DNA of 63,460 nt, the filler included, from Actinomycetota bacterium (GTDB taxonomy: Bacteria > Actinomycetota > CADDZG01 > JAHWKV01 > JAOPZY01), in the NCBI GenBank assembly GCA_025963875.1. It is 8 parts of 8 records of this genome, joined end to end, with 100 filler letters (N's around TTAATTAATTAA, not from the genome) between each part and the next. Parts side by side here need not be neighbours in the genome. Positions count along the whole stretch, not along the records: positions 44,986 to 50,075 come from JAOPZY010000258.1; 7 more parts are not named here. One strand, 5' to 3'. A program made the translations under genes and the position numbers. This document shows positions 3,615 through 57,177 of this stretch, in pieces. The stretch's first letter is position 1. Every line of letters starts with the position of its first letter. The notes beneath the pieces were generated by a model that did not search any database, was not told the DNA's origin, and saw only the letters and a program-made list of their open reading frames with translations.

Positions 3615-6600
3615 TTGCCCGCCGTGCGCCTGAATCAGCTTTTCCAGCCCGTTGGGGCGCTGACCGAGCGTGCGGCCGCATCCCTCCAGGGCCGGAAAAG
3701 CCGCCGCACGTGGGTCGGGAACGGCCGTGCCCACATCGAAGTACGCGGTCTCTCCGGTCCGCGCTCCGAGGAGGTGGCGGCGAGTCTCAAGGCAAAACTC
3801 GAGCGGTTGCGAGGCGTGCACTGGGCTGAGGTGAACGTCGCGCTCGGCCGCGCCATCGTGGCGATCGACAGTGACGAACCGGACGTGGGGGACCTCATCG
3901 AGGCCATCGAAGCCGTCGAGGCCGCCCTGGGCGTGCACAAGGAGCGCTTCCCCTACGATCGTCCGGAGCACCCCGCAGACATCGAGCCGCTACATCGCAA
4001 CCTCACGGCGATGGCGGCTGACGTCATCGGGCTGGGCGTCAGCACGTCGGCGAGCCTGATGCATGCGGTGCCGATCCCCGGCGAAGTGGCTGCGATCGCA
4101 TCCTTCATCGACAGCCAGCCCCGGCTTCGGCGGTTGGTGAGCGAGGCGGTGGGGCCACCCGTGGCCGACCTGGCGCTGGCACTGGGGAGTGCCTTCGCCC
4201 AAGGGCTCGGACAAGGTCCGATTGGACTGGTCGTGGATCTTGCCCATCGCTCGAATCAGGTGGCGGAGGTCGTCGCCCGCCGGCGAGTCTGGGCGTTGCG
4301 GGAGCCGGAACTGCAGGCCAAGCCGGCATGGGCCCGAGCCGAGAGCACTGCGGTTGCCGCTGCACCCCCCGGTCGACCCGTCCCGCTTCCCGGCGGCCCG
4401 GTGGAGCGATGGGCCGACCGGACATCGCTTGCCTCCCTGGGGGCCTGTGGGGTTGCCGCCGCCGCCACCAGGGACCCGCGCCGCGCCGCGAGCGTCACCC
4501 TTGCAGGAATGCCGAAGGCCGGGAGGCTGGGTCGGGAGGCCTTCGCGGCGCAGCTCGGGCGGGTCCTGGCGGCCCGCGGCGTCGTGCCGTTCGATTCCCG
4601 TCGCCTGCGGCTCCTGGACCGGGTGGACACCGTGATGCTGGAGGCCGCAGCGGTGCTCACGGGGGCCCAGGTGGTTGGCCGGGTCATCCCTGTGGAAGGC
4701 GACGGCAGCGCCCGGCAGGACATCCTCACCGCCAGGGTGTATCGCTTGTACAGCGGCCGGGAAACGACAACCGTCCGGCGGCGGGGACGGTGGTCGCTCG
4801 GCCCCCTCGAATCTCTGGACGCCACCTTGCCGCGCGGCACGAAGTCGTCGGCTGCCCGTGCAGCCCAGAGCTGCGACGCGGTCCTCGGTCTTGCCTACGG
4901 AGGTCGCCTCGCGGCGCTTGTCACCGTCGAGTCCGAGCTGGACCCCCTTGCGGAGGAGCTTGCGGGCGCCATCCGCCGGGCCGGGCATTTTTTCGTCGTC
5001 GCCGGAACGACCGGTGCTGTTGCGCAGCGGCTCCACGCCGACCGGAGGACTGCCGCCGGCAAGCGCCTGCGGTTCGCAGTCCAGGACCTGCAAGGCGAGG
5101 GGAGGGTCGTGGCGCTGCTTGCCACACGTGGTGGCGAGGCGCTCAGGGCCGCCGATTGCGGGGTCGGCATTCTTACTCCAGGCAAACCCCCGCCCTGGGG
5201 AGCGCACCTGATGTGTGGTCCCGGCCTGGCAGCTGCCCACCTGGTCGTCGAAGCGACGACCTCTGCCGTCCGGGCGAGTCGTCGGAGCGCCGGACTGGCC
5301 GTTGCAGGGTCTGCGGTGGGGGGCGTTCTTGCCCTGTCCGGTGCGAGGGGGCAGGCCGCCCGGCGCGCCGTTCTTCCTGTCAACGGAGCCGCCTTGGCGG
5401 CGGTTGCGTGGGGAGCCTGGGACGGCGTCCAGCTGGGCCGCAGGCCCGACCCCGTCCCGGCAGAGACAACGCCGTGGCATGCCGTGCCGTGGGACGCGGT
5501 CCTGCGCAAGCTCGGGACATCACCGGAAGGCCTGGCGCCCGACGAGGTCCGGCGGCGCCGAAGCGGATCCGCCTGGGCGGCCCGCGGCCAGCCCCCGGGC
5601 CTCGCGGCCACGATTGTCGACGAGCTCGCCAACCCGTTGACGCCCGTGCTCGCGGCGGGGGCCGGGCTGGCAGCCGCCGCCGGCTCCCCCATGGATGCCG
5701 GGCTCGTCGGCGGCGTCATGGTGGGCAACGCCGTGTTCTCGGCCCTCTACCGCCGGCGGACCTTCGCATCCCTTCGCCGGCTGGTGCCAGCCGAGGAGAC
5801 GCAGGTGCTCGTCCGGCGGTCAGGGCCGGCGTCCATGGTCCCCGCGACCCAGCTTGTGGTCGGTGACGTCGTCGAGCTCGAGGCGGGTGCGGTCGTGCCG
5901 GCCGATCTCCGCCTGCTGGACGCGACCGCCCTCGAGGTGGACGAGTCGTCCCTCACCGGGGAATCCCTTCCCGTGCCGAAGTCCCCCGCCCCCGTCCCAG
6001 ACGTTCCGGTGGCCGAGCGGAGCTCCATGCTCTACGAGGGAACGACCATTGCCGCTGGATCCGCCGTCGGCGCCGTGGTTGCTCTCTTTCCCGCTACCGA
6101 GATCGGGAGGAGCGTGGCCCTGGCCCACGAGAGGGCCGGGCCGCCGCTGGGCGTGCAGGCCCGGCTCCGGTCGATCACCAACCTGACGCTTCCCATCTCG
6201 CTTGCAGGCAGCGCCGCACTGATCGCCAATGGTCTGCTGCGCGGGCGGCCCTTCCGGGAGGCGCTCGGGGATGGCGTGAGTCTCGGCGTCGCGGCCGTAC
6301 CCGAGGGACTCCCCTTCGTCGCCAATGCCGCGGCGTTCGCCGGCGCGAGGCGGCTCTCGTCACGGGGCGCTCTGGTCGCCAACCCGGAGGCCCTCGAGAC
6401 GCTGGGGAGGGTCGATGTCCTGTGTTTCGACAAGACCGGCACACTGACCCTCGGCAAGCTCAGCGTTCGGCTGGTCTCCGACGGGGTCACGGACCTGCCA
6501 CCGCAGCAGCTGGTGCAACCCCACCGTGAACTCCACCGGGCGGTCCTCGCTGCCGGCGTCCGCGCCAGCCCTCCGGCCGGTGGCCCGAGGCCACCGCATG

Positions 6601-8117
6601 CCACAGATCGGGCAGTGCTCCGAGCGGCGCGCGAGGCCGGGGTCGATCCCTCCACCGGGCTCTCGCGGTGGACCCGGATCGGCGAGGTTCCCTTCGAGCC
6701 CGCCCGAGGGTTGCACACGACCGTTGGGGAATCGGGTTCCCGCAGGCTCATCAGCGTCAAGGGCGCCCCCGAGCGGGTCCTGGAGCTGTGCACGAGCTGG
6801 CGAAGCCCGGATGGGGACGTGCCGCTGGATCGCCGTCAACGGCGGATGGTCGAGGCCCACGTCGAACATCTGGCCAGGCGCGGTTTTCGGGTGCTGGCGG
6901 TGGCGGAACGGGCGGACGCCCGACCGGATGCACCGGTCAACGGCTCACGCTCGGCCCCCGATCACCTCCCCGATCTTGTCCCCAGGGACCTGCGGCTTCT
7001 TGGTTTGCTTGCCCTTGCCGACGAGGCGCGCGACACGGCCGCGCCCGCCATCGCCGCCCTGGGAAGGGCAGGCGTCGCGGTGCGGATGATCACCGGCGAC
7101 CATCCGACGACGGCGGCCGCCGTGGCAAAGGAGCTGGGCATCCTGAACGGCGGAGCCGTGCTCACCGGTGCCCAGCTCGATGGGCTGACCGACGACGAGC
7201 TCGCCGCCAGGCTGCCGGAGGCGACGGTCTTCGCAAGGGTCACGCCGACCCAGAAGGTGAGGATCGTCGAGGCCCTCCAGCGTTCGGGGCGGCGTGTTGC
7301 GATGACCGGCGACGGCGCCAACGATGCACCGGCGATCCGGCTGGCTGCGGTTGGCTTCGCGGTCGGAGACCGCGCCACGCCGGCTGCTCGCGACGCCGCC
7401 GACGTCGTGATCGTCGGCGACGAGTTGGAGACCATCATCGACGCGATCGTCGAGGGACGGGCCATGTGGGCCTCGCTCCGTGACGCCCTGGCCATCCTCC
7501 TCGGCGGCAACCTCGGCGAGATCGCCTTCGAGCTGACCGGGAGCGCGCTCACCGGCCACTCCCCGCTGAACCCACGCCAGCTCCTGCTGACCAACCTGCT
7601 GACCGACCTCGGTCCCGCCCTCGCCATCGCACTCCAGCCGCCCCGTGACCGCCCGACGGAGGAGCTGCTGCGGGAGGGACCGGATGCTTCGCTGGGGCGG
7701 TCGCTCAACCGCCAGATCGTTCTCCGAGCCGTGTCGACGGCGGCGGCCGCGACGGGGGCCTGGGTCGTGGCACGTCCCACGGGACGCAGGCGATCGGCGA
7801 CGGTGGGCCTCGCCGCCCTTGTCGGGGCCCAGCTGGGGCAGACGCTCGTCGCAGGCCGTCGGAGCCCCCTGGTGATCGGGACGGTCGCCGTCTCGGGAGC
7901 TGCCCTTTTCGCAGTGGTCCAGACGCCGGGGGTCAGCCAATTCTTCGGCTGCACACCGCTTGGGCCCGCCGAGTGGGCGACGGCCGCCGGTGCCGCCGGG
8001 ATAGCCACGTTCGGATCGATCGCGCTTCCCTGGGCGGCCTCCAGAGTGAGATCCTTGGGGCACCGCCGCCCGAGGAATGGACATTCTCCAGGCGGGTATC
8101 CCGATGCAGACGGATGA
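3615..8117 (+). CDS. Large cation-transporting P-type ATPase (CtpH/CtpI-like)
   Basis: 1500 aa; LTGES, AVPEGLP, DKTGT, KGAPE, MITGD and MTGDGAND motifs; long N-terminal extension. Confidence 0.92.
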   Translation: MPAVRLNQLFQPVGALTERAAASLQGRKSRRTWVGNGRAHIEVRGLSGPRSEEVAASLKAKLERLRGVHWAEVNVALGRAIVAIDSDEPDVGDLIEAIEAVEAALGVHKERFPYDRPEHPADIEPLHRNLTAMAADVIGLGVSTSASLMHAVPIPGEVAAIASFIDSQPRLRRLVSEAVGPPVADLALALGSAFAQGLGQGPIGLVVDLAHRSNQVAEVVARRRVWALREPELQAKPAWARAESTAVAAAPPGRPVPLPGGPVERWADRTSLASLGACGVAAAATRDPRRAASVTLAGMPKAGRLGREAFAAQLGRVLAARGVVPFDSRRLRLLDRVDTVMLEAAAVLTGAQVVGRVIPVEGDGSARQDILTARVYRLYSGRETTTVRRRGRWSLGPLESLDATLPRGTKSSAARAAQSCDAVLGLAYGGRLAALVTVESELDPLAEELAGAIRRAGHFFVVAGTTGAVAQRLHADRRTAAGKRLRFAVQDLQGEGRVVALLATRGGEALRAADCGVGILTPGKPPPWGAHLMCGPGLAAAHLVVEATTSAVRASRRSAGLAVAGSAVGGVLALSGARGQAARRAVLPVNGAALAAVAWGAWDGVQLGRRPDPVPAETTPWHAVPWDAVLRKLGTSPEGLAPDEVRRRRSGSAWAARGQPPGLAATIVDELANPLTPVLAAGAGLAAAAGSPMDAGLVGGVMVGNAVFSALYRRRTFASLRRLVPAEETQVLVRRSGPASMVPATQLVVGDVVELEAGAVVPADLRLLDATALEVDESSLTGESLPVPKSPAPVPDVPVAERSSMLYEGTTIAAGSAVGAVVALFPATEIGRSVALAHERAGPPLGVQARLRSITNLTLPISLAGSAALIANGLLRGRPFREALGDGVSLGVAAVPEGLPFVANAAAFAGARRLSSRGALVANPEALETLGRVDVLCFDKTGTLTLGKLSVRLVSDGVTDLPPQQLVQPHRELHRAVLAAGVRASPPAGGPRPPHATDRAVLRAAREAGVDPSTGLSRWTRIGEVPFEPARGLHTTVGESGSRRLISVKGAPERVLELCTSWRSPDGDVPLDRRQRRMVEAHVEHLARRGFRVLAVAERADARPDAPVNGSRSAPDHLPDLVPRDLRLLGLLALADEARDTAAPAIAALGRAGVAVRMITGDHPTTAAAVAKELGILNGGAVLTGAQLDGLTDDELAARLPEATVFARVTPTQKVRIVEALQRSGRRVAMTGDGANDAPAIRLAAVGFAVGDRATPAARDAADVVIVGDELETIIDAIVEGRAMWASLRDALAILLGGNLGEIAFELTGSALTGHSPLNPRQLLLTNLLTDLGPALAIALQPPRDRPTEELLREGPDASLGRSLNRQIVLRAVSTAAAATGAWVVARPTGRRRSATVGLAALVGAQLGQTLVAGRRSPLVIGTVAVSGAALFAVVQTPGVSQFFGCTPLGPAEWATAAGAAGIATFGSIALPWAASRVRSLGHRRPRNGHSPGGYPDADG

Positions 8118-15095: not shown

Positions 15096-15195
15096 NNNNN
15101 NNNNNNNNNNNNNNNNNNNNNNNNNNNNNNNNNNNNNNNTTAATTAATTAANNNNNNNNNNNNNNNNNNNNNNNNNNNNNNNNNNNNNNNNNNNN
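15096..15195. other. Artificial contig spacer (same spacer at 19576-19675, 27212-27311, 41927-42026, 44886-44985, 50076-50175, 57017-57116)
   Basis: N run, TTAATTAATTAA (stops in all six frames), N run. Confidence 0.98.
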
Positions 15196-19575: not shown

Positions 19576-19675
19576 NNNNNNNNNNNNNNNNNNNNNNNNN
19601 NNNNNNNNNNNNNNNNNNNTTAATTAATTAANNNNNNNNNNNNNNNNNNNNNNNNNNNNNNNNNNNNNNNNNNNN

Positions 19676-27211: not shown

Positions 27212-27311
27212 NNNNNNNNNNNNNNNNNNNNNNNNNNNNNNNNNNNNNNNNNNNNTTAATTAATTAANNNNNNNNNNNNNNNNNNNNNNNNNNNNNNNNN
27301 NNNNNNNNNNN

Positions 27312-41926: not shown

Positions 41927-42026
41927 NNNNNNNNNNNNNNNNNNNNNNNNNNNNNNNNNNNNNNNNNNNNTTAATTAATTAANNNNNNNNNNNNNNNNNN
42001 NNNNNNNNNNNNNNNNNNNNNNNNNN

Positions 42027-44885: not shown

Positions 44886-44985
44886 NNNNNNNNNNNNNNN
44901 NNNNNNNNNNNNNNNNNNNNNNNNNNNNNTTAATTAATTAANNNNNNNNNNNNNNNNNNNNNNNNNNNNNNNNNNNNNNNNNNNN

Positions 44986-45329
44986 GCGTGCTCAGGCAGG
45001 CGGGCACGGAGGCCCCCTTTACGGGCGAGTACTTCGACTGCCATGACGACGGCACCTACCGCTGCGCGGCGTGCGGGGCCGAGCTGTTCACCTCCGATGC
45101 CAAGTTCGAGTCCGGGACGGGCTGGCCCAGCTTCACCGAGCCGGCGGTTGCCGCCGCGGTGGACCTGCACAAGGACTTCTCCCACGGGATGCTGCGGACC
45201 GAGGTCCGCTGCCGGGCCTGCGGCTCGCACCTGGGCCACGTGTTCAACGACGGGCCGCGCCCGACCGGCAAGCGGTTCTGCATCAACTCGTGTGCCCTGG
45301 AGCTGGACCGGGAAGGCGGTGCGGTATGA
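44986..45329 (+). CDS. msrB: Methionine-R-sulfoxide reductase (5' truncated, Cys form)
   Basis: [33 protein letters not shown]. Confidence 0.95.
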
Positions 45330-45805
45330 CCACGACCAGGTACGCAACCTTCGGCGCTGGCTGATTCTGGGGCATCGAGGCGGAGTTCCGCCTCATCCCC
45401 GGCGTCGTCGACACCGCCGTCGGCTACGCCGGCGGCAAGACGTCGAACCCGACCTACGGGGACGTCTGCTCGCACCGCACCGGCCACGCCGAGGTGGTGC
45501 GGGTCGAGTACGACCCGTCCCAGGTGTCGTACGAGACCCTGCTCGACCGCTTCTGGCACATCCACAACCCCACCACGAAGAACCGGCAGGGGTTGGACTT
45601 CGGGAGCCAGTACCGATCGGTGATCTTCTTCCACGACGACGAGCAGAAGGCCGTCGCCATCGCGTCCCGGGATGCCCAGGACCGTTCGGGTGAGCACCGC
45701 AAGAAGATCGTGACCGAGATCCTCCCCGCCCCGGAGTTCTGGCGGGCCGAGGAGTACCACCAGCAGTACTACGACAAGCACGGCATCGCGGCCTGCAGGT
45801 TCTGA
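45326..45805 (+). CDS. msrA: Methionine-S-sulfoxide reductase, predicted selenocysteine form (TGA at 45362-45364)
   Basis: ATFGAG(TGA)FWG matches the GCFWG active site; the frame continues through GYAGG, TGHAE, RQG.D.GSQYRS and [12 protein letters not shown] coupling to msrB. Confidence 0.9.
45367..45402 (+). promoter_or_regulatory. Bacterial SECIS-like hairpin in msrA
   Basis: ctgggg-c-at-c-gaggcgg[agtt]ccgcctc-at-ccccgg; apical GT about 21 nt after the TGA. Confidence 0.7.
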
Positions 45806-45874
45806 GCGAGCCGGAGGGGTGTCCCGTTCCGAATGAGGCAGGAGGGAGTATGAGCTGGAAGGGGGGAGCCCGAC

Positions 45875-46042
45875 ATGCCGGAATTCAAATGAGTGGACGC
45901 CGGGGCGAACTGTAACGGTCACTTCAAGGCAGCCACCAAAGAGGATCTGATGCGCGACGTCGCCGAACACTTCAAAAAGAAGCACGGAGTGGGGGACCCG
46001 ACGGAGACCATCATGAACCTGGTGGCGAAGCTGGCGAAGTAG
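45875..46042 (+). CDS. DUF1059-like small metal-binding protein, predicted selenoprotein (TGA at 45890-45892)
   Basis: GGAG RBS; MPEFK(U)VDAGANCNGHFKAATKEDLMRDVAEHFKKKHG...; TGA falls at the first Cys of the F.C.D.G..C...EH...HG pattern. Confidence 0.75.
45893..45936 (+). promoter_or_regulatory. SECIS-like hairpin in the DUF1059-like gene
   Basis: gtgg/ccac, gcc/ggc, gggg/cttc and actg/cggt stems; apical GT 20 nt after the TGA. Confidence 0.5.
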
Positions 46043-46078
46043 TTACGGCCACGCCGTTCCTGGTCCAGGGACACGAGA

Positions 46079-47839
46079 ATGTCGACAATCAAAACTGCAC
46101 CGGTCGCCGAGCGAAAAGGCTCCAGGATCGATCTTGGCGCCCGCCTGGTGATGACGGCGCTCTACAAGCGCCTGTTCTCGCTGGGGCTCTGGGAGCACAT
46201 CCGCTCGGTGGGCGGCAACCGGGACAAGGGGATCGGGGGAGCGTACTTCGTCACCCACGACAACCAGGCCTTCTTCGAGGACCTGATCCGCAGCGGCTCG
46301 TTCTGCAAGGACTCCGCTGCGGGCTCCATCCTCCACAAGAGGGTCATCTCGCTGCGGGAGGTTGGCGCCCAGCCGGGGCTGCACCTCGAGTTGGGTGCGG
46401 ACGACCGCATCTACGTCCACCTGGACGAGCACTCGCCGGTCGGGGGGGTCAAGGCGGACGGCACGTGCCGCTACGAGCGGGCCAAGACCGCCGACCATAT
46501 CCGCCTCGACGTGCTCCGCGCCTTCACCGGCTCCCTGCGTGTCGGGGCGCTCGCTGGCAGGGTGTCATCCTCGGGCAGGGAGCTGGCCGCGGCCGAGGGC
46601 GGCTGGCGCAAGGCCCGGGACTCGATCGAGCCAGAGGTGGTGGCCCGGGCCGCCCTCACGCTCGCGACGCTGCTCGAGGAGCAGGGCCACGTCGCCCGTG
46701 CCGAACGCCTGTACCGCGACGCCATGGCGACCGGGCACGCGGAGTTGGGCCCCGCCGCCGCCTTCAGCCTCGCTGAGCTGCTCGAAGAGCGCGGGGAGCT
46801 CGACCGGGCCGAGGAGGTCTACCGCTGGTCCATCGCCACCGGCCACAAGGAGTTCGCAGCCTGGGCGGTGTCCGGGCTCGCCGCCCTGCTCGAGAAGCGG
46901 GGCCAGGCCGACGGCGCCCGGGACGCGTACATGACGGCCCTGGCCATCCAGCATCCCGAGATCTCGCCCTGGGCCGCAGTCAAGCTCGGCGGCTTCCTCG
47001 TCGACCAGGGTGAGATCGCCGGGGCGGAGGCTGCCTACAAGATGGCGATCGCCTCCGCCCATCCCGAGTTCGCTCCCTGGGCTGCCCTCGACATGGCATC
47101 CATGCAGGACAAGCTCGGCCGCCGGGAGGACGCCGCCGAGGGCTACCGGGCCGCCATCGCCACCGAGCACCCGGACGCGACGCCCTGGGCAGGCCTCAAG
47201 TTGGCAGCCCTCCTGGAAGCCGAAGGCGACAGTGCCGCGGCCCTGTCCGCCTATGAGGGGGTCATTGCGTTCGCCCACCCCGAGGCCAGTCCCTGGGCGT
47301 GGATCCGCTACGGCGACCTGCTGCAGGAATCAGGCGATTCTGATCGGGCACGGGAGGCCTACGCATCGGCGGTCGCGACGGGCCACGAGGACGCCGCACC
47401 GGACGGCGCGGTGAAGCTCGGCGGGCTCGCCGTCGCCGCCGGTGACTACGCCGCCGCCCGGGACGCCTACCAGCAGGCGATCGACTCGGCCCACCCCGAG
47501 GCCGCCGCCGCGGCAGCCCTCGGCCTGGCATCGCTGCTGGAGGAGCTGGGGGAGCGCAAGGATGCCGTACGGATGTACGAGGAGGCCGCCTCGACCAGCA
47601 ATTCCCAGGTTGCTCCCTGGGCGCTGCTCGGCCTCGGCAGCCTCCTCGAGGCCGAGGGTGACGAGGCGGGCGCCCGCGACGCCTACGCCCGCGCCCTTGA
47701 GAGCGGCCACCCGGAGGCAGGCCTCAGTGCCGGCGTCAAGCTCGGCGCCCTCCTCGAGGCCGCCGGCGACGAGGCGGGGGCCAAGGATGCCTACCGGGCG
47801 GCCCTGGCTCTTCAGGAAGCGCAGCCCGCTTCTCCCTGA
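46079..47839 (+). CDS. TPR/SEL1-like repeat protein with unknown N-terminal domain
   Basis: About 10 repeats of about 37 aa (LG.LL...GD...A..AY..AI...HPE). Confidence 0.85.
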   Translation: MSTIKTAPVAERKGSRIDLGARLVMTALYKRLFSLGLWEHIRSVGGNRDKGIGGAYFVTHDNQAFFEDLIRSGSFCKDSAAGSILHKRVISLREVGAQPGLHLELGADDRIYVHLDEHSPVGGVKADGTCRYERAKTADHIRLDVLRAFTGSLRVGALAGRVSSSGRELAAAEGGWRKARDSIEPEVVARAALTLATLLEEQGHVARAERLYRDAMATGHAELGPAAAFSLAELLEERGELDRAEEVYRWSIATGHKEFAAWAVSGLAALLEKRGQADGARDAYMTALAIQHPEISPWAAVKLGGFLVDQGEIAGAEAAYKMAIASAHPEFAPWAALDMASMQDKLGRREDAAEGYRAAIATEHPDATPWAGLKLAALLEAEGDSAAALSAYEGVIAFAHPEASPWAWIRYGDLLQESGDSDRAREAYASAVATGHEDAAPDGAVKLGGLAVAAGDYAAARDAYQQAIDSAHPEAAAAAALGLASLLEELGERKDAVRMYEEAASTSNSQVAPWALLGLGSLLEAEGDEAGARDAYARALESGHPEAGLSAGVKLGALLEAAGDEAGAKDAYRAALALQEAQPASP

Positions 47840-47925
47840 CGTCACGGCAGTCCGGGCCATCCGCCCCAAGCTCCGCTCCGAATCTCTCCTGCAAGCACAA
47901 GCCAAGGGAGCGAAGGGAGCGGGTC

Positions 47926-48393
47926 ATGGAGGGTTCACAGAAATTGGGCATCGTCCGGATGTACGCCTTGGTGTTCGGTCTCGCCTATCTGGCGGTCGCT
48001 GCACTCGAGGTGGGTCTCAAGGTCTTCGGTTCGGGCAGCCTGATGGTCGGCGGCCAGACCATCCTCAAGATCACGCCGGCACAGAACGCCATCCACTGGC
48101 TGGTCGGCCTCGCCGTGCTCGGTTCCTTCTTCGCCGGCACCGCAGTCGCCAAGATGGTCGCCAGGGGCGTCGGCATCGTGTTTCTCCTGGTGAGCGCACT
48201 CGGCATCTTCGCCGCCACCTTCACCGGCAAGCTCCTCGGCTTCCCGGGCGCCCTGCCGGTCTCGTACAACGTCGTGCACGTGGCGACCATGGTCGCCGCA
48301 CTGTTCGCAGGATTCGCCGCCGAGGCGGCGTACCAGGGTCGCCGGACCACCTCCTCGGGTTCCGGCGCACCAGCAAGCATGGCCCCCCGCTAA
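47926..48393 (+). CDS. DUF4383-like membrane protein
   Basis: Four TM segments; NAIHWLVG and NVVH motifs. Confidence 0.65.
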   Translation: MEGSQKLGIVRMYALVFGLAYLAVAALEVGLKVFGSGSLMVGGQTILKITPAQNAIHWLVGLAVLGSFFAGTAVAKMVARGVGIVFLLVSALGIFAATFTGKLLGFPGALPVSYNVVHVATMVAALFAGFAAEAAYQGRRTTSSGSGAPASMAPR

Positions 48394-48517
48394 GCAACGA
48401 CCACCCAGTACAGCCGGGGGAGTTGGTCGGGACGGGGGCGGCGAACTTGGCCAGCCGCCCTCGTCCCCGCCGCATCGGGCCGGCCCGTCTCGTTGCTGAG
48501 ATGGGCCGGCTCATCCA

Positions 48518-49395
48518 TGTCCGAAGAGAAAGGGTGTCCTGTGGGTAGGCTGCCAGCCGTGCGTGGTCGACGCTGGAACTCCGAGACCCTCGTCTGCGGC
48601 ATCCGCGGGCACGTCGCTCCCGCCGCAGAGGTGCGAACGCTTCTTCCCGAGCACTCCGGCGTGGGGGTCGACCTCCCCGATGGCCGCCGCCTCGCCCGGT
48701 GCCTGCGCTGCGACGCCTGGATCGCGGTGCCGGCCGACACCGCGGCCGGAGCCGAGCGGGAGTCGCTCCCGGACCTGGAATCGATGGAGATGCCCCGCCG
48801 AGGGAAGCGCCTGCGGGAGGCCATCATCCTGCGCCTCATCGCCATCGACCGGGCGTTCCATGCCGTCCTCTTCGGTGCCATTGCCGTCGGCTCCTTCCTT
48901 GCGGAGCGAAGGTTCCCGCTGTTCCAGGCAACGCTGCAGCGATGGCTGGTGTTCATCGACCAGGCCGCCGGCCAGACGGGGCCGACGCCCACCAAGTCGT
49001 TCGCCGATCGGGAACTCCGGCACCTGCTCACCGTCCGGAGCAGCTCCCTGCGGCTGGTCGCCATCACCGCCGCGGTGTACTGCGTGTTGGAGGCCACCGA
49101 GGCCGTAGGACTGTGGAGGGAACGGCGGTGGGCCGAGTACCTGACCGCGGTGGCGACGGCCGGCTTCCTGCCCTTCGAGATCATCGAGCTGACCAAGAGG
49201 GTGAGCCCCCTCAGGCTGGGGACCTTTGTGATCAACCTCGCCATCCTCGTCTACCTGATCTGGGCCAAACGCCTCTTCGGCGTGGGCCGCCTGCGCAAGG
49301 CGAAGAAGGAACTCGACGTCGAGGACGTGAAGAGACTCTTCGGGCCCGGGTCCGGGGGGACGCCGTTCGTGCGCCAGGGAAGGTTGGGAGCCTAG
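48518..49395 (+). CDS. DUF2127-like membrane protein with N-terminal Cys/His motif
   Basis: CGIRGH...RCLRC; EAVGLWRERRWAEY, FLPFEIIE, NLAILVYL. Confidence 0.75.
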
Positions 49396-49539
49396 CGCGC
49401 GCCTGCGCGCGATTCGCTCCCAACTTCGGGCCACGGGCCGCCCGAACCGTCATTGCCTGTGCGGCCTCGCCGGCGTCGTCACGGCGCTCCTGGCCATCGA
49501 TCCACTCGCCCGCCGCCGCAGATCGGCGCGGTCCGTCGA

Positions 49540-50075
49540 TTAGCCGGGAGGAATCTGGAAGTTCACACCCATGAAGCAGGAGGGGTTCGGCGGGAGCGAC
49601 CCGTCCTTGGCGACCTGGCTCCAGATCGCGGAATCGGCGCCGTTCAGGACCACGACGCTGGCCCCCCCGACGGTCTGGCCGACGCCGCTCATCGTGCAGC
49701 TCTTCACGTTGGCGGGGTCAAGCAGACGGGCGGTCATGGCGAGCCGGATGATGTCCGGGAGGGGCGAGTTGAAGGCCGCCCGCTGCCGGCCGGTCCGGAT
49801 GAGGTCGAAGATGTAGCGCATGTCGAGCGCCTGCTTGTGGAACTTGCGGAAGGCCGAGATGATGATCTGGCTCTGGTCGTTGCTCCGGCCGAAGTCGCCG
49901 CCCGGGGTGTTGTAGCGGTCCCGGCTGAACGCCAGGGTGTCTCCCCCAAGCATGTGGTAGTCGCCCGGGTCGAAGTGGGTGCCCGTGTCCGCGGGGTTGT
50001 GCATGGGCTGGTAGACGTGGATGTCCAGGCCCCCGACGGCGTCGATCAACGGCATGAAGTTGCTGAAGTTGGTGT
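49540..50075 (-). CDS. LytR/CpsA/Psr (LCP) family protein, C-terminal part
   Basis: LIDAVGG, LAFSRDR, GDFGRSNDQ. Confidence 0.85.
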
Positions 50076-50175
50076 NNNNNNNNNNNNNNNNNNNNNNNNN
50101 NNNNNNNNNNNNNNNNNNNTTAATTAATTAANNNNNNNNNNNNNNNNNNNNNNNNNNNNNNNNNNNNNNNNNNNN

Positions 50176-56866: not shown

Positions 56867-57177
56867 CTTTGAGCGGCGGGGAACCCCGTCGGGCCGGCGG
56901 CCCACCGGGTGCTGTCACGGCCTCCGAGGTCGAATGCCTCAGAAAACCGGCATCAGGAACACTTCGTCGGCGTAGCACCAGCCCCAGTCCTCGCCCGGCT
57001 CGAACGAGCGGACAACNNNNNNNNNNNNNNNNNNNNNNNNNNNNNNNNNNNNNNNNNNNNTTAATTAATTAANNNNNNNNNNNNNNNNNNNNNNNNNNNN
57101 NNNNNNNNNNNNNNNNTAACTAGAATCCGGCCCACACGCCAAGTGCGGGCCGGCACCGAGCCGGTGGGGGACCCGAC

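Follow-up and report, generated by a model that had tools for sequence, protein, structure and literature searches.

A probable selenocysteine codon in a small DUF1059 gene beside msrB and msrA in an Actinomycetota genome

Introduction

The question raised by this locus is whether a TGA codon, the sixth of a 55-codon frame on the plus strand (45875-46042), ends translation or is read as selenocysteine (Sec). The frame lies in a window of 63,460 nucleotides, by which we mean the whole stretch of DNA that was analysed, taken from an assembly of an Actinomycetota bacterium (GCA_025963875.1). The window consists of eight contigs strung together by seven N44-TTAATTAATTAA-N44 linkers (15096-15195, 19576-19675, 27212-27311, 41927-42026, 44886-44985, 50076-50175 and 57017-57116), and genes on either side of a linker are therefore not neighbours.

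The prototype of a bacterial selenoprotein gene with a SECIS inside its reading frame is E. coli fdhF, where the element is read by SelB. According to the bacterial SECIS consensus given in a 2026 review, the element is a stem-loop past the UGA whose small apical loop lies at a distance of 16-37 nt and has a G in its first two positions (PMC13188914). Based on the data described below, the UGA of codon 6 is very probably read as Sec, and the window gene would accordingly encode a selenoprotein. What leads to this reading is that the TGA is kept, that the sequence on either side of it is conserved as protein, that some homologues have Cys in its place and that related genomes carry Sec machinery; the argument is comparative and does not draw on a demonstrated SECIS or on chemical data.

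The gene and its reading frame

The gene starts with an ATG at 45875, carries the in-frame TGA at 45890-45892 and ends, after 55 codons, with a TAG at 46040-46042. A Shine-Dalgarno-like sequence, GGGGGGAG (45861-45868, plus strand), is located six bases 5' of the ATG, and GGAAGGAG or GAGGAGG is found at the same distance from the start in the related loci. With the TGA translated as U, the product is MPEFKUVDAGANCNGHFKAATKEDLMRDVAEHFKKKHGVGDPTETIMNLVAKLAK. The sole entry for this gene in the mechanical ORF list is a 49-aa GTG frame (45893-46042) that begins right after the TGA.

When U is read as C, the protein matches PF06348 (DUF1059) with 48.9 bits, well over the gathering cut-off of 21.1 (E = 7.8e-13), and residues 1-48 align with positions 1-48 of the 56-position profile. 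Alignment of 48 diverse members from the related order shows that only U/C6, G10, A11, C13, H32 and H37 are invariant, which includes the Cys...Cys...His...His columns of the family. An earlier note on this DNA had described a frame led by a ribosome-binding site and missing from the ORF track, encoding a DUF1059-like protein with TGA as codon 6 and at the first Cys of the family pattern; all of these points are borne out by the frame, the profile match and the invariant columns.

Conservation of the TGA codon

A protein search recovered 26 relatives, which comprise 19 calls of 49 aa that start just after the TGA column, three stubs of 30 aa and four full-length proteins. The latter have Cys at the TGA column and share 76-85% identity with the window protein. 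Gene callers shorten the Sec forms of DUF1059 to 49-aa or 30-aa stubs, and because of this the Sec-containing family is invisible in proteomes.

The picture is different when the DNA is read. TGA is present in 5/5 full-length loci from species-representative genomes (seven loci fetched; the five are all from Actinomycetota MAGs) and in 18/18 full-length loci from metagenomes (19 fetched). The resulting 23 of 23 refers to full-length loci, with the partial matches L006, L007 and L034 left out; all 23 share the reading frame, their protein identity is 65 to 95%, and some are identical to each other (over the first 51 nt, 21 sequences reduce to 18 distinct ones). Coding conservation is seen on both sides of the UGA in all 23 loci: the five codons 5' of it are conserved as M/V-P/L-E-F-K/R while their synonymous third positions vary. 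Counting TGA against Cys among the homologues thus gives 23/23 TGA loci and four close Cys proteins, with 32 Sec genes against 29 Cys genes in the related order.

Public soil sequencing runs were also consulted. At 45890-45892, the contigs of four runs (three from RNA libraries, one from DNA) show no other letter, so a change to TGC or TGT, which the earlier note had allowed for, is not what these contigs carry. One RNA-library contig of 580 nt spans 45467-46046, although contigs from RNA libraries are no proof of transcription.

Selenocysteine machinery and genetic code

Decoding of codon 6 would depend on the bacterial SelA/SelB/tRNA-Sec/SelD system. Among the five closest genomes, which are incomplete MAGs, selA was found in 5/5 and selB, adjoining selA, in 5/5; selD was found in 4/5 (G002-G005, loci L008-L011), and a tRNA-Sec above the gathering score in 1/5. 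Each of the four selD genes has one in-frame TGA, and SelD itself is therefore probably a selenoprotein in these four relatives. The order to which the genome G001 belongs has selA in 26/26 genomes, above the cut-off in 24 and cut by contig ends in the other two; for its published genomes the counts are 22/22 at E up to 1e-30 and 20/22 above the cut-off. No sel gene was detected among the 36 window ORFs scanned, so the machinery is shown in the relatives only and is implied for the window's own genome by the neighbouring Sec-msrA. The Sec reading proposed in the earlier note, which had asked for selA/selB/selC/selD, is supported by what the relatives carry.

TGA is not reassigned in this lineage. 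It serves as an ordinary stop at the end of the window's msrA and of 85 of the 153 long ORFs in the related loci.

DUF1059 in the related order and worldwide

The 26 genomes of the order were searched in six frames, which gave 73 PF06348 matches in 21 genomes; 69 of these were translated, and the other four are in unpublished genomes. The counts that follow are restricted to published genomes, and the unpublished G103, G108, G111 and G112 are left out. The published genomes hold 62 DUF1059 genes, of which 32 have TGA at the first-Cys column, 29 have Cys and one is broken. Every one of the 17 published genomes with a PF06348 match has at least one TGA form, with up to four Sec paralogues in a genome. 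The TGA forms make up at least six subfamilies in the published genomes, and a seventh is seen only in an unpublished one. Order-wide read-through would mean several additional selenoproteins per genome in this group of soil Actinomycetota. A TGA form has a Cys paralogue in tandem with it on five published contigs, and such couples are natural pairs for asking what selenium contributes at the site.

A tree of 70 distinct published proteins places all 45 Sec forms, together with 11 Cys forms, in one well-supported clade, and the window's DUF1059 is found within an all-Sec clade of 22. About five switches between Sec and Cys are needed on this tree and its well-supported branches force at least two, bearing in mind that it is based on 59 alignment columns, with many forks left unresolved.

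In the rest of the class matches are few: 11 further genomes of 86 have one, and TGA is present in two of the matches. Run worldwide against 1.84 billion representatives, the profile gave 337 clusters at E up to 0.001. Among the best 150 of these 337 clusters, 118 fit the pattern C-x5-8-C...H-x3-5-H, and about eleven are N-terminal stubs of the type expected from a TGA.

Two smaller observations were made in this set. The broken gene is a paralogue of a Sec subfamily (L043, G102:C197:294-392) which is apparently frameshifted or decayed at its 5' end. As for the terminal stop, TGA is used by 1/46 Sec-form genes, compared with 7/25 Cys forms and 85/153 long ORFs nearby; since the rows are related, its rarity in the Sec forms may reflect inheritance and not selection.

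Genomic context

The contig that carries the gene (44986-50075) encodes, in this order, MsrB, MsrA, DUF1059, a 586-aa TPR protein, a membrane protein and DUF2127. The msrB gene (44988-45329, plus strand; PF01641, E = 1.3e-46) is cut at the contig start and its stop overlaps the start of msrA (ATGA). The msrA gene (45326-45805, plus strand; PF01625, E = 5e-64) ends with a TGA stop and has a further TGA at 45362-45364, within a GUFWG motif, which confirms the in-frame TGA that had been reported for this neighbour. A strong hairpin (45363-45406, plus strand; z = -2.95) places a loop G-U 21 nt past the msrA TGA.

On the other side, 36 nt past the DUF1059 stop, the TPR protein gene begins (46079-47839, plus strand; TPR families assigned by Pfam). 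Residues 1-165 of the TPR protein (46079-46573) are its most conserved part, and no Pfam family matches them. Complex prediction for the window TPR protein with the Cys orthologue alignment gave a score of 0.00, which is uninformative either way.

This arrangement is kept in the related loci. The msrA gene is directly upstream of DUF1059 in 20/23 of them; in two, the sequence begins too near the gene to show what precedes it, and a third has a different neighbour. The TPR gene is downstream in 22/23, and the remaining contig ends 11 nt past DUF1059. Within the order the TPR gene stands beside 8/36 loci, and these are exactly the window's subfamily (seven published, one unpublished). More distant members (L004, and L099 of G098) have no msr link, nor has any of the other Sec subfamilies, whose neighbours (RtcB, SMC-like, PALP, FGGY and GltX) show no common theme; the msr link may therefore hold only for the window's subfamily.

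Scanning of 44986-48500 found no promoter-like or terminator-like sites. The DUF1059 gene is probably co-expressed with the upstream msrB and Sec-msrA and with the downstream TPR gene, and this gene context suggests a role in the response to, or the repair of, oxidative damage.

A link to [NiFe] hydrogenase was considered as well. PMC9561532, one of two papers found to mention DUF1059 in passing, names a DUF1059 domain among the components of group 1m [NiFe]-hydrogenase clusters, along with a TPR protein and a CooC-type ATPase. This lead was not borne out: the [NiFe] hydrogenase genes of five genomes (the large subunits in four) are on contigs other than those with DUF1059, and no hydrogenase match was obtained in G098, which has five DUF1059 genes.

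A metal site or a redox pair

The position of Sec on an invariant Cys suggests that the residue is chemically active, and a Sec at one member of an invariant Cys-Cys-His-His set would give the first functional handle on DUF1059. The AlphaFold2 model calculated on the 48-member alignment (mean pLDDT 94.1; an earlier model from 23 sequences reached 83.1) consists of a strand (3-5), a short helix (6-9), a second strand (16-18) and two helices (22-37 and 44-53). On this small strand-strand-helix-helix fold, Sec would take the first of the four invariant Cys/His-type positions.

Four invariant residues of Cys and His type point to a metal site rather than to a plain redox pair. The assignment of Sec/Cys6, Cys13, His32 and His37 as metal ligands is a plausible one to which we give slightly less than an even chance. 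Together they may form one Cys2His2-like site with a selenolate ligand, which could double as a Sec-Cys redox switch, and it is possible that one site serves both roles. The earlier note had proposed a Sec-for-Cys metal or redox site; replacement of the first family Cys by TGA stands as an observation, while the metal or redox part is what we infer from the invariant U/C-C-H-H set.

The classical Cys2His2 zinc finger has two Cys ligands on a beta hairpin and two His near the end of a helix, and the predicted model of DUF1059 resembles it in its Cys-type and His residues arranged on strands and then on a helix. However, DUF1059 has its residues much further apart and an additional C-terminal helix, and the structural matches are insignificant (Foldseek rows to zinc fingers have E of 4-7). 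Sequence search of the PDB found no relevant solved relative, and fold searches with the two models gave no clear match (VIA-align best Z of 4.3 and 3.8, to unrelated small proteins; Foldseek E above 1).

Another hypothesis is that Sec6 and Cys13 are not metal ligands but a redox pair, cycling between selenol/thiol and selenenylsulfide, which acts as a reductant or resolving partner for MsrA/MsrB. The presence of msrA directly upstream in 20/23 related loci fits such a function, as does the occurrence of Sec in redox motifs in most known selenoproteins (PMC13188914). Yet both His residues are as invariant as the Cys/Sec positions, and a dithiol-type centre needs no His. The spacing is U-x6-C and not UxxC or CxxU, and the distant members and other Sec subfamilies named above have no msr link. 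Furthermore, the catalytic column of msrA is TGA in 14 and TGC in four of the 18 related loci that cover its N-terminus, while DUF1059 has TGA throughout. For these reasons we regard the redox pair as doubtful.

A broader proposal can be built on the metal site. DUF1059 would be a family of seleno-metalloproteins (a selenolate, a Cys and two His at one metal site) that has multiplied in a soil Actinomycetota order to several Sec paralogues per genome. The window's subfamily would pair, as the smaller protein, with a dedicated TPR protein whose conserved N-terminal domain has no family assignment, and would form a metal or redox switch that depends on selenium and is linked to the repair of methionine sulfoxide. 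We put this forward tentatively, as a speculation that is rather unlikely to hold in full.

The candidate SECIS hairpin

SelB would probably be recruited by a stem-loop in the coding sequence at about 45902-45925 (plus strand), that is nt 13-36 counted from the U of the UGA, with an apical G-U at 45912-45913 (nt 23-24). The minimum-energy fold of this region is a hairpin at 45893-45936 with -16.5 kcal/mol, and its G-U lies 20 nt past the TGA. In the Boltzmann samples for the window, the probability of an apical loop that begins within nt 14-27 is 0.87, and the loop starts at nt 24 in 87% of samples. Over both forms of the gene this probability has a mean of 0.55 and a median of 0.65 for Sec sequences (n = 50), compared with 0.24 and 0.05 for Cys sequences (n = 28); the difference has p = 0.004, with the sequences being related and non-independent and with four Sec and three Cys of the 78 rows coming from unpublished genomes.

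Compared with dinucleotide shuffles the hairpin has z = -0.33, and 73 of 200 shuffles fold as well; compared with 200 synonymous recodings the window segment has z = -1.65, and in this minimum-energy test the Sec and Cys sets show no difference (Mann-Whitney p = 0.21, with a pooled codon table that is perhaps too GC-rich for some genomes). RNAalifold found 0 compensatory pairs in 21 subfamily sequences. The candidate structure is 94.4% paired in these sequences, against 20-47% when it is slid along the alignment, but this is no better than in column shuffles. The full 44-nt hairpin (45893-45936) was rejected as a conserved element: among 18 distinct sequences, pair 6-45 is open in 12 and pair 7-44 in 6. 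The core at 45902-45925 is kept in the subfamily and consists of codons already fixed by the protein.

With its energy at chance level, no covariation and core codons that the protein fixes, the SECIS can be called no more than a compatible candidate. The earlier note had placed a hairpin at 45893-45936 with a GU apex 20 nt after the TGA, and had given the same spacing for msrA. The location and the apex hold, and the spacing in msrA is close (21 nt); its stability does not exceed that of shuffles, and covariation, which the note had looked to for confirmation, did not appear, the outer pairs being broken in many relatives.

Other readings of the codon

Could the UGA be a true stop? The gene would then consist of a five-codon leader followed by a 49-residue protein for which ribosomes, having terminated, re-initiate at the GTG at 45893. 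A GTG comes right after the TGA in the window, as it does in 22/46 distinct Sec-form genes, and gene callers annotate exactly this 49-aa product. But the codon in this place is GCN, GTA, GTC or TCC, none of them a start, in the other 24/46, including GTA in one lineage of the window's own subfamily (L005). Conservation at the protein level extends to the five codons 5' of the TGA, whose residues agree with the start of the Cys homologues (FRC/FKC-VDAG), the Shine-Dalgarno sequence precedes the upstream ATG or GTG and not the inner GTG, and the 49-aa form would be deprived of one of the four invariant residues. We therefore consider re-initiation highly improbable.

An ordinary Cys or Trp protein made by low-level read-through of the UGA, through a near-cognate tRNA (Cys or Trp) and with no part for Sec machinery, has an equally slender chance. 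It would agree with the chance-level energy of the hairpin and its missing covariation, and with Sec machinery being shown in the relatives' genomes and not in the window's. Against this, the in-frame stop is TGA in 46/46 distinct published Sec-form sequences, and a leaky stop held at an invariant ligand, with TGC only one mutation away, is hard to explain if Sec gives no benefit. The presence of selA in 26/26 genomes of the order and the same TGA-or-Cys pattern in the neighbouring msrA, there with a strong SECIS-like hairpin, also argue against it.

A nonsense mutation, a pseudogene or an assembly error has a negligible probability and is already contradicted, for although one relative's paralogue is broken (G102:C197:294), the same TGA occurs in 23/23 related loci between flanks that are both kept as protein, it recurs in independent contigs of four runs, and the in-frame stop is never TAA or TAG, all of which agrees with the earlier note in making a chance mutation unlikely. 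The reading of codon 6 as Sec is thus the one that we prefer.

Relation to known selenoproteins

Literature searches that joined DUF1059, PF06348, COG5466 or 'small metal-binding protein' with selenoprotein or selenocysteine found no report. DUF1059 is absent from Supplementary Table S3 of Peng et al. 2016 (PMC5029168), in which a few rows are named only 'hypothetical' or 'unknown', and PF06348 and 'DUF10' occur 0 times in the main text of the 2026 review (PMC13188914). Table 1 of that review lists 119 prokaryotic selenoprotein families, Sec-MsrA among them. The accessible text on deep-Sep (PMC12013277) gives nine new selenoprotein families, none of which is DUF1059, and BSepDB was built from reported families (PMC13326102). 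NCBIfam has 0 families that match the protein at E up to 1, and no listed selenoprotein family was matched. DUF1059 is missing from the selenoprotein catalogues checked, and as far as these go its Sec form is uncatalogued; the impression in the earlier note that it had not been described as a selenoprotein agrees with the literature and lists consulted. If read through, it would add one family to the roughly 119 listed.

The closest known relatives are the Cys-containing DUF1059 proteins (PF06348; 'predicted small metal-binding protein' in JGI annotation), which have the same HMM family, length and invariant C...C...H...H residues, whereas the window gene encodes the first Cys position by UGA. 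With selenoprotein genes that are read by SelB through an in-frame SECIS, the window gene shares an in-frame UGA where a Cys is conserved, homologues that have this Cys, a lineage with Sec machinery and a candidate hairpin with its apical G-U 20 nt past the UGA, inside the 16-37 nt range given in the review (PMC13188914); in contrast to them, its hairpin is weak and the pairing has no covariation support.

Sec at predicted metal-binding positions has precedents in Table 1 of the review (PMC13188914), namely MerP-like, YHS-domain and CobW-related proteins and the 'metal-binding double selenoprotein MbdU'. As far as the table describes them, these are likewise small proteins of soil and sediment bacteria with Sec where homologues have a metal-binding Cys, but they belong to unrelated families with the motifs UxxC, CU and GxU, and not U-x6-C ... 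H-x4-H as in DUF1059.

A further observation in the window

Elsewhere in the window, 3615-8117 is a 1500-codon open frame whose P-type ATPase domains do not start before residue 728. Either its start was called too far upstream in GC-rich DNA, or the protein has a long N-terminal region with no family assignment.
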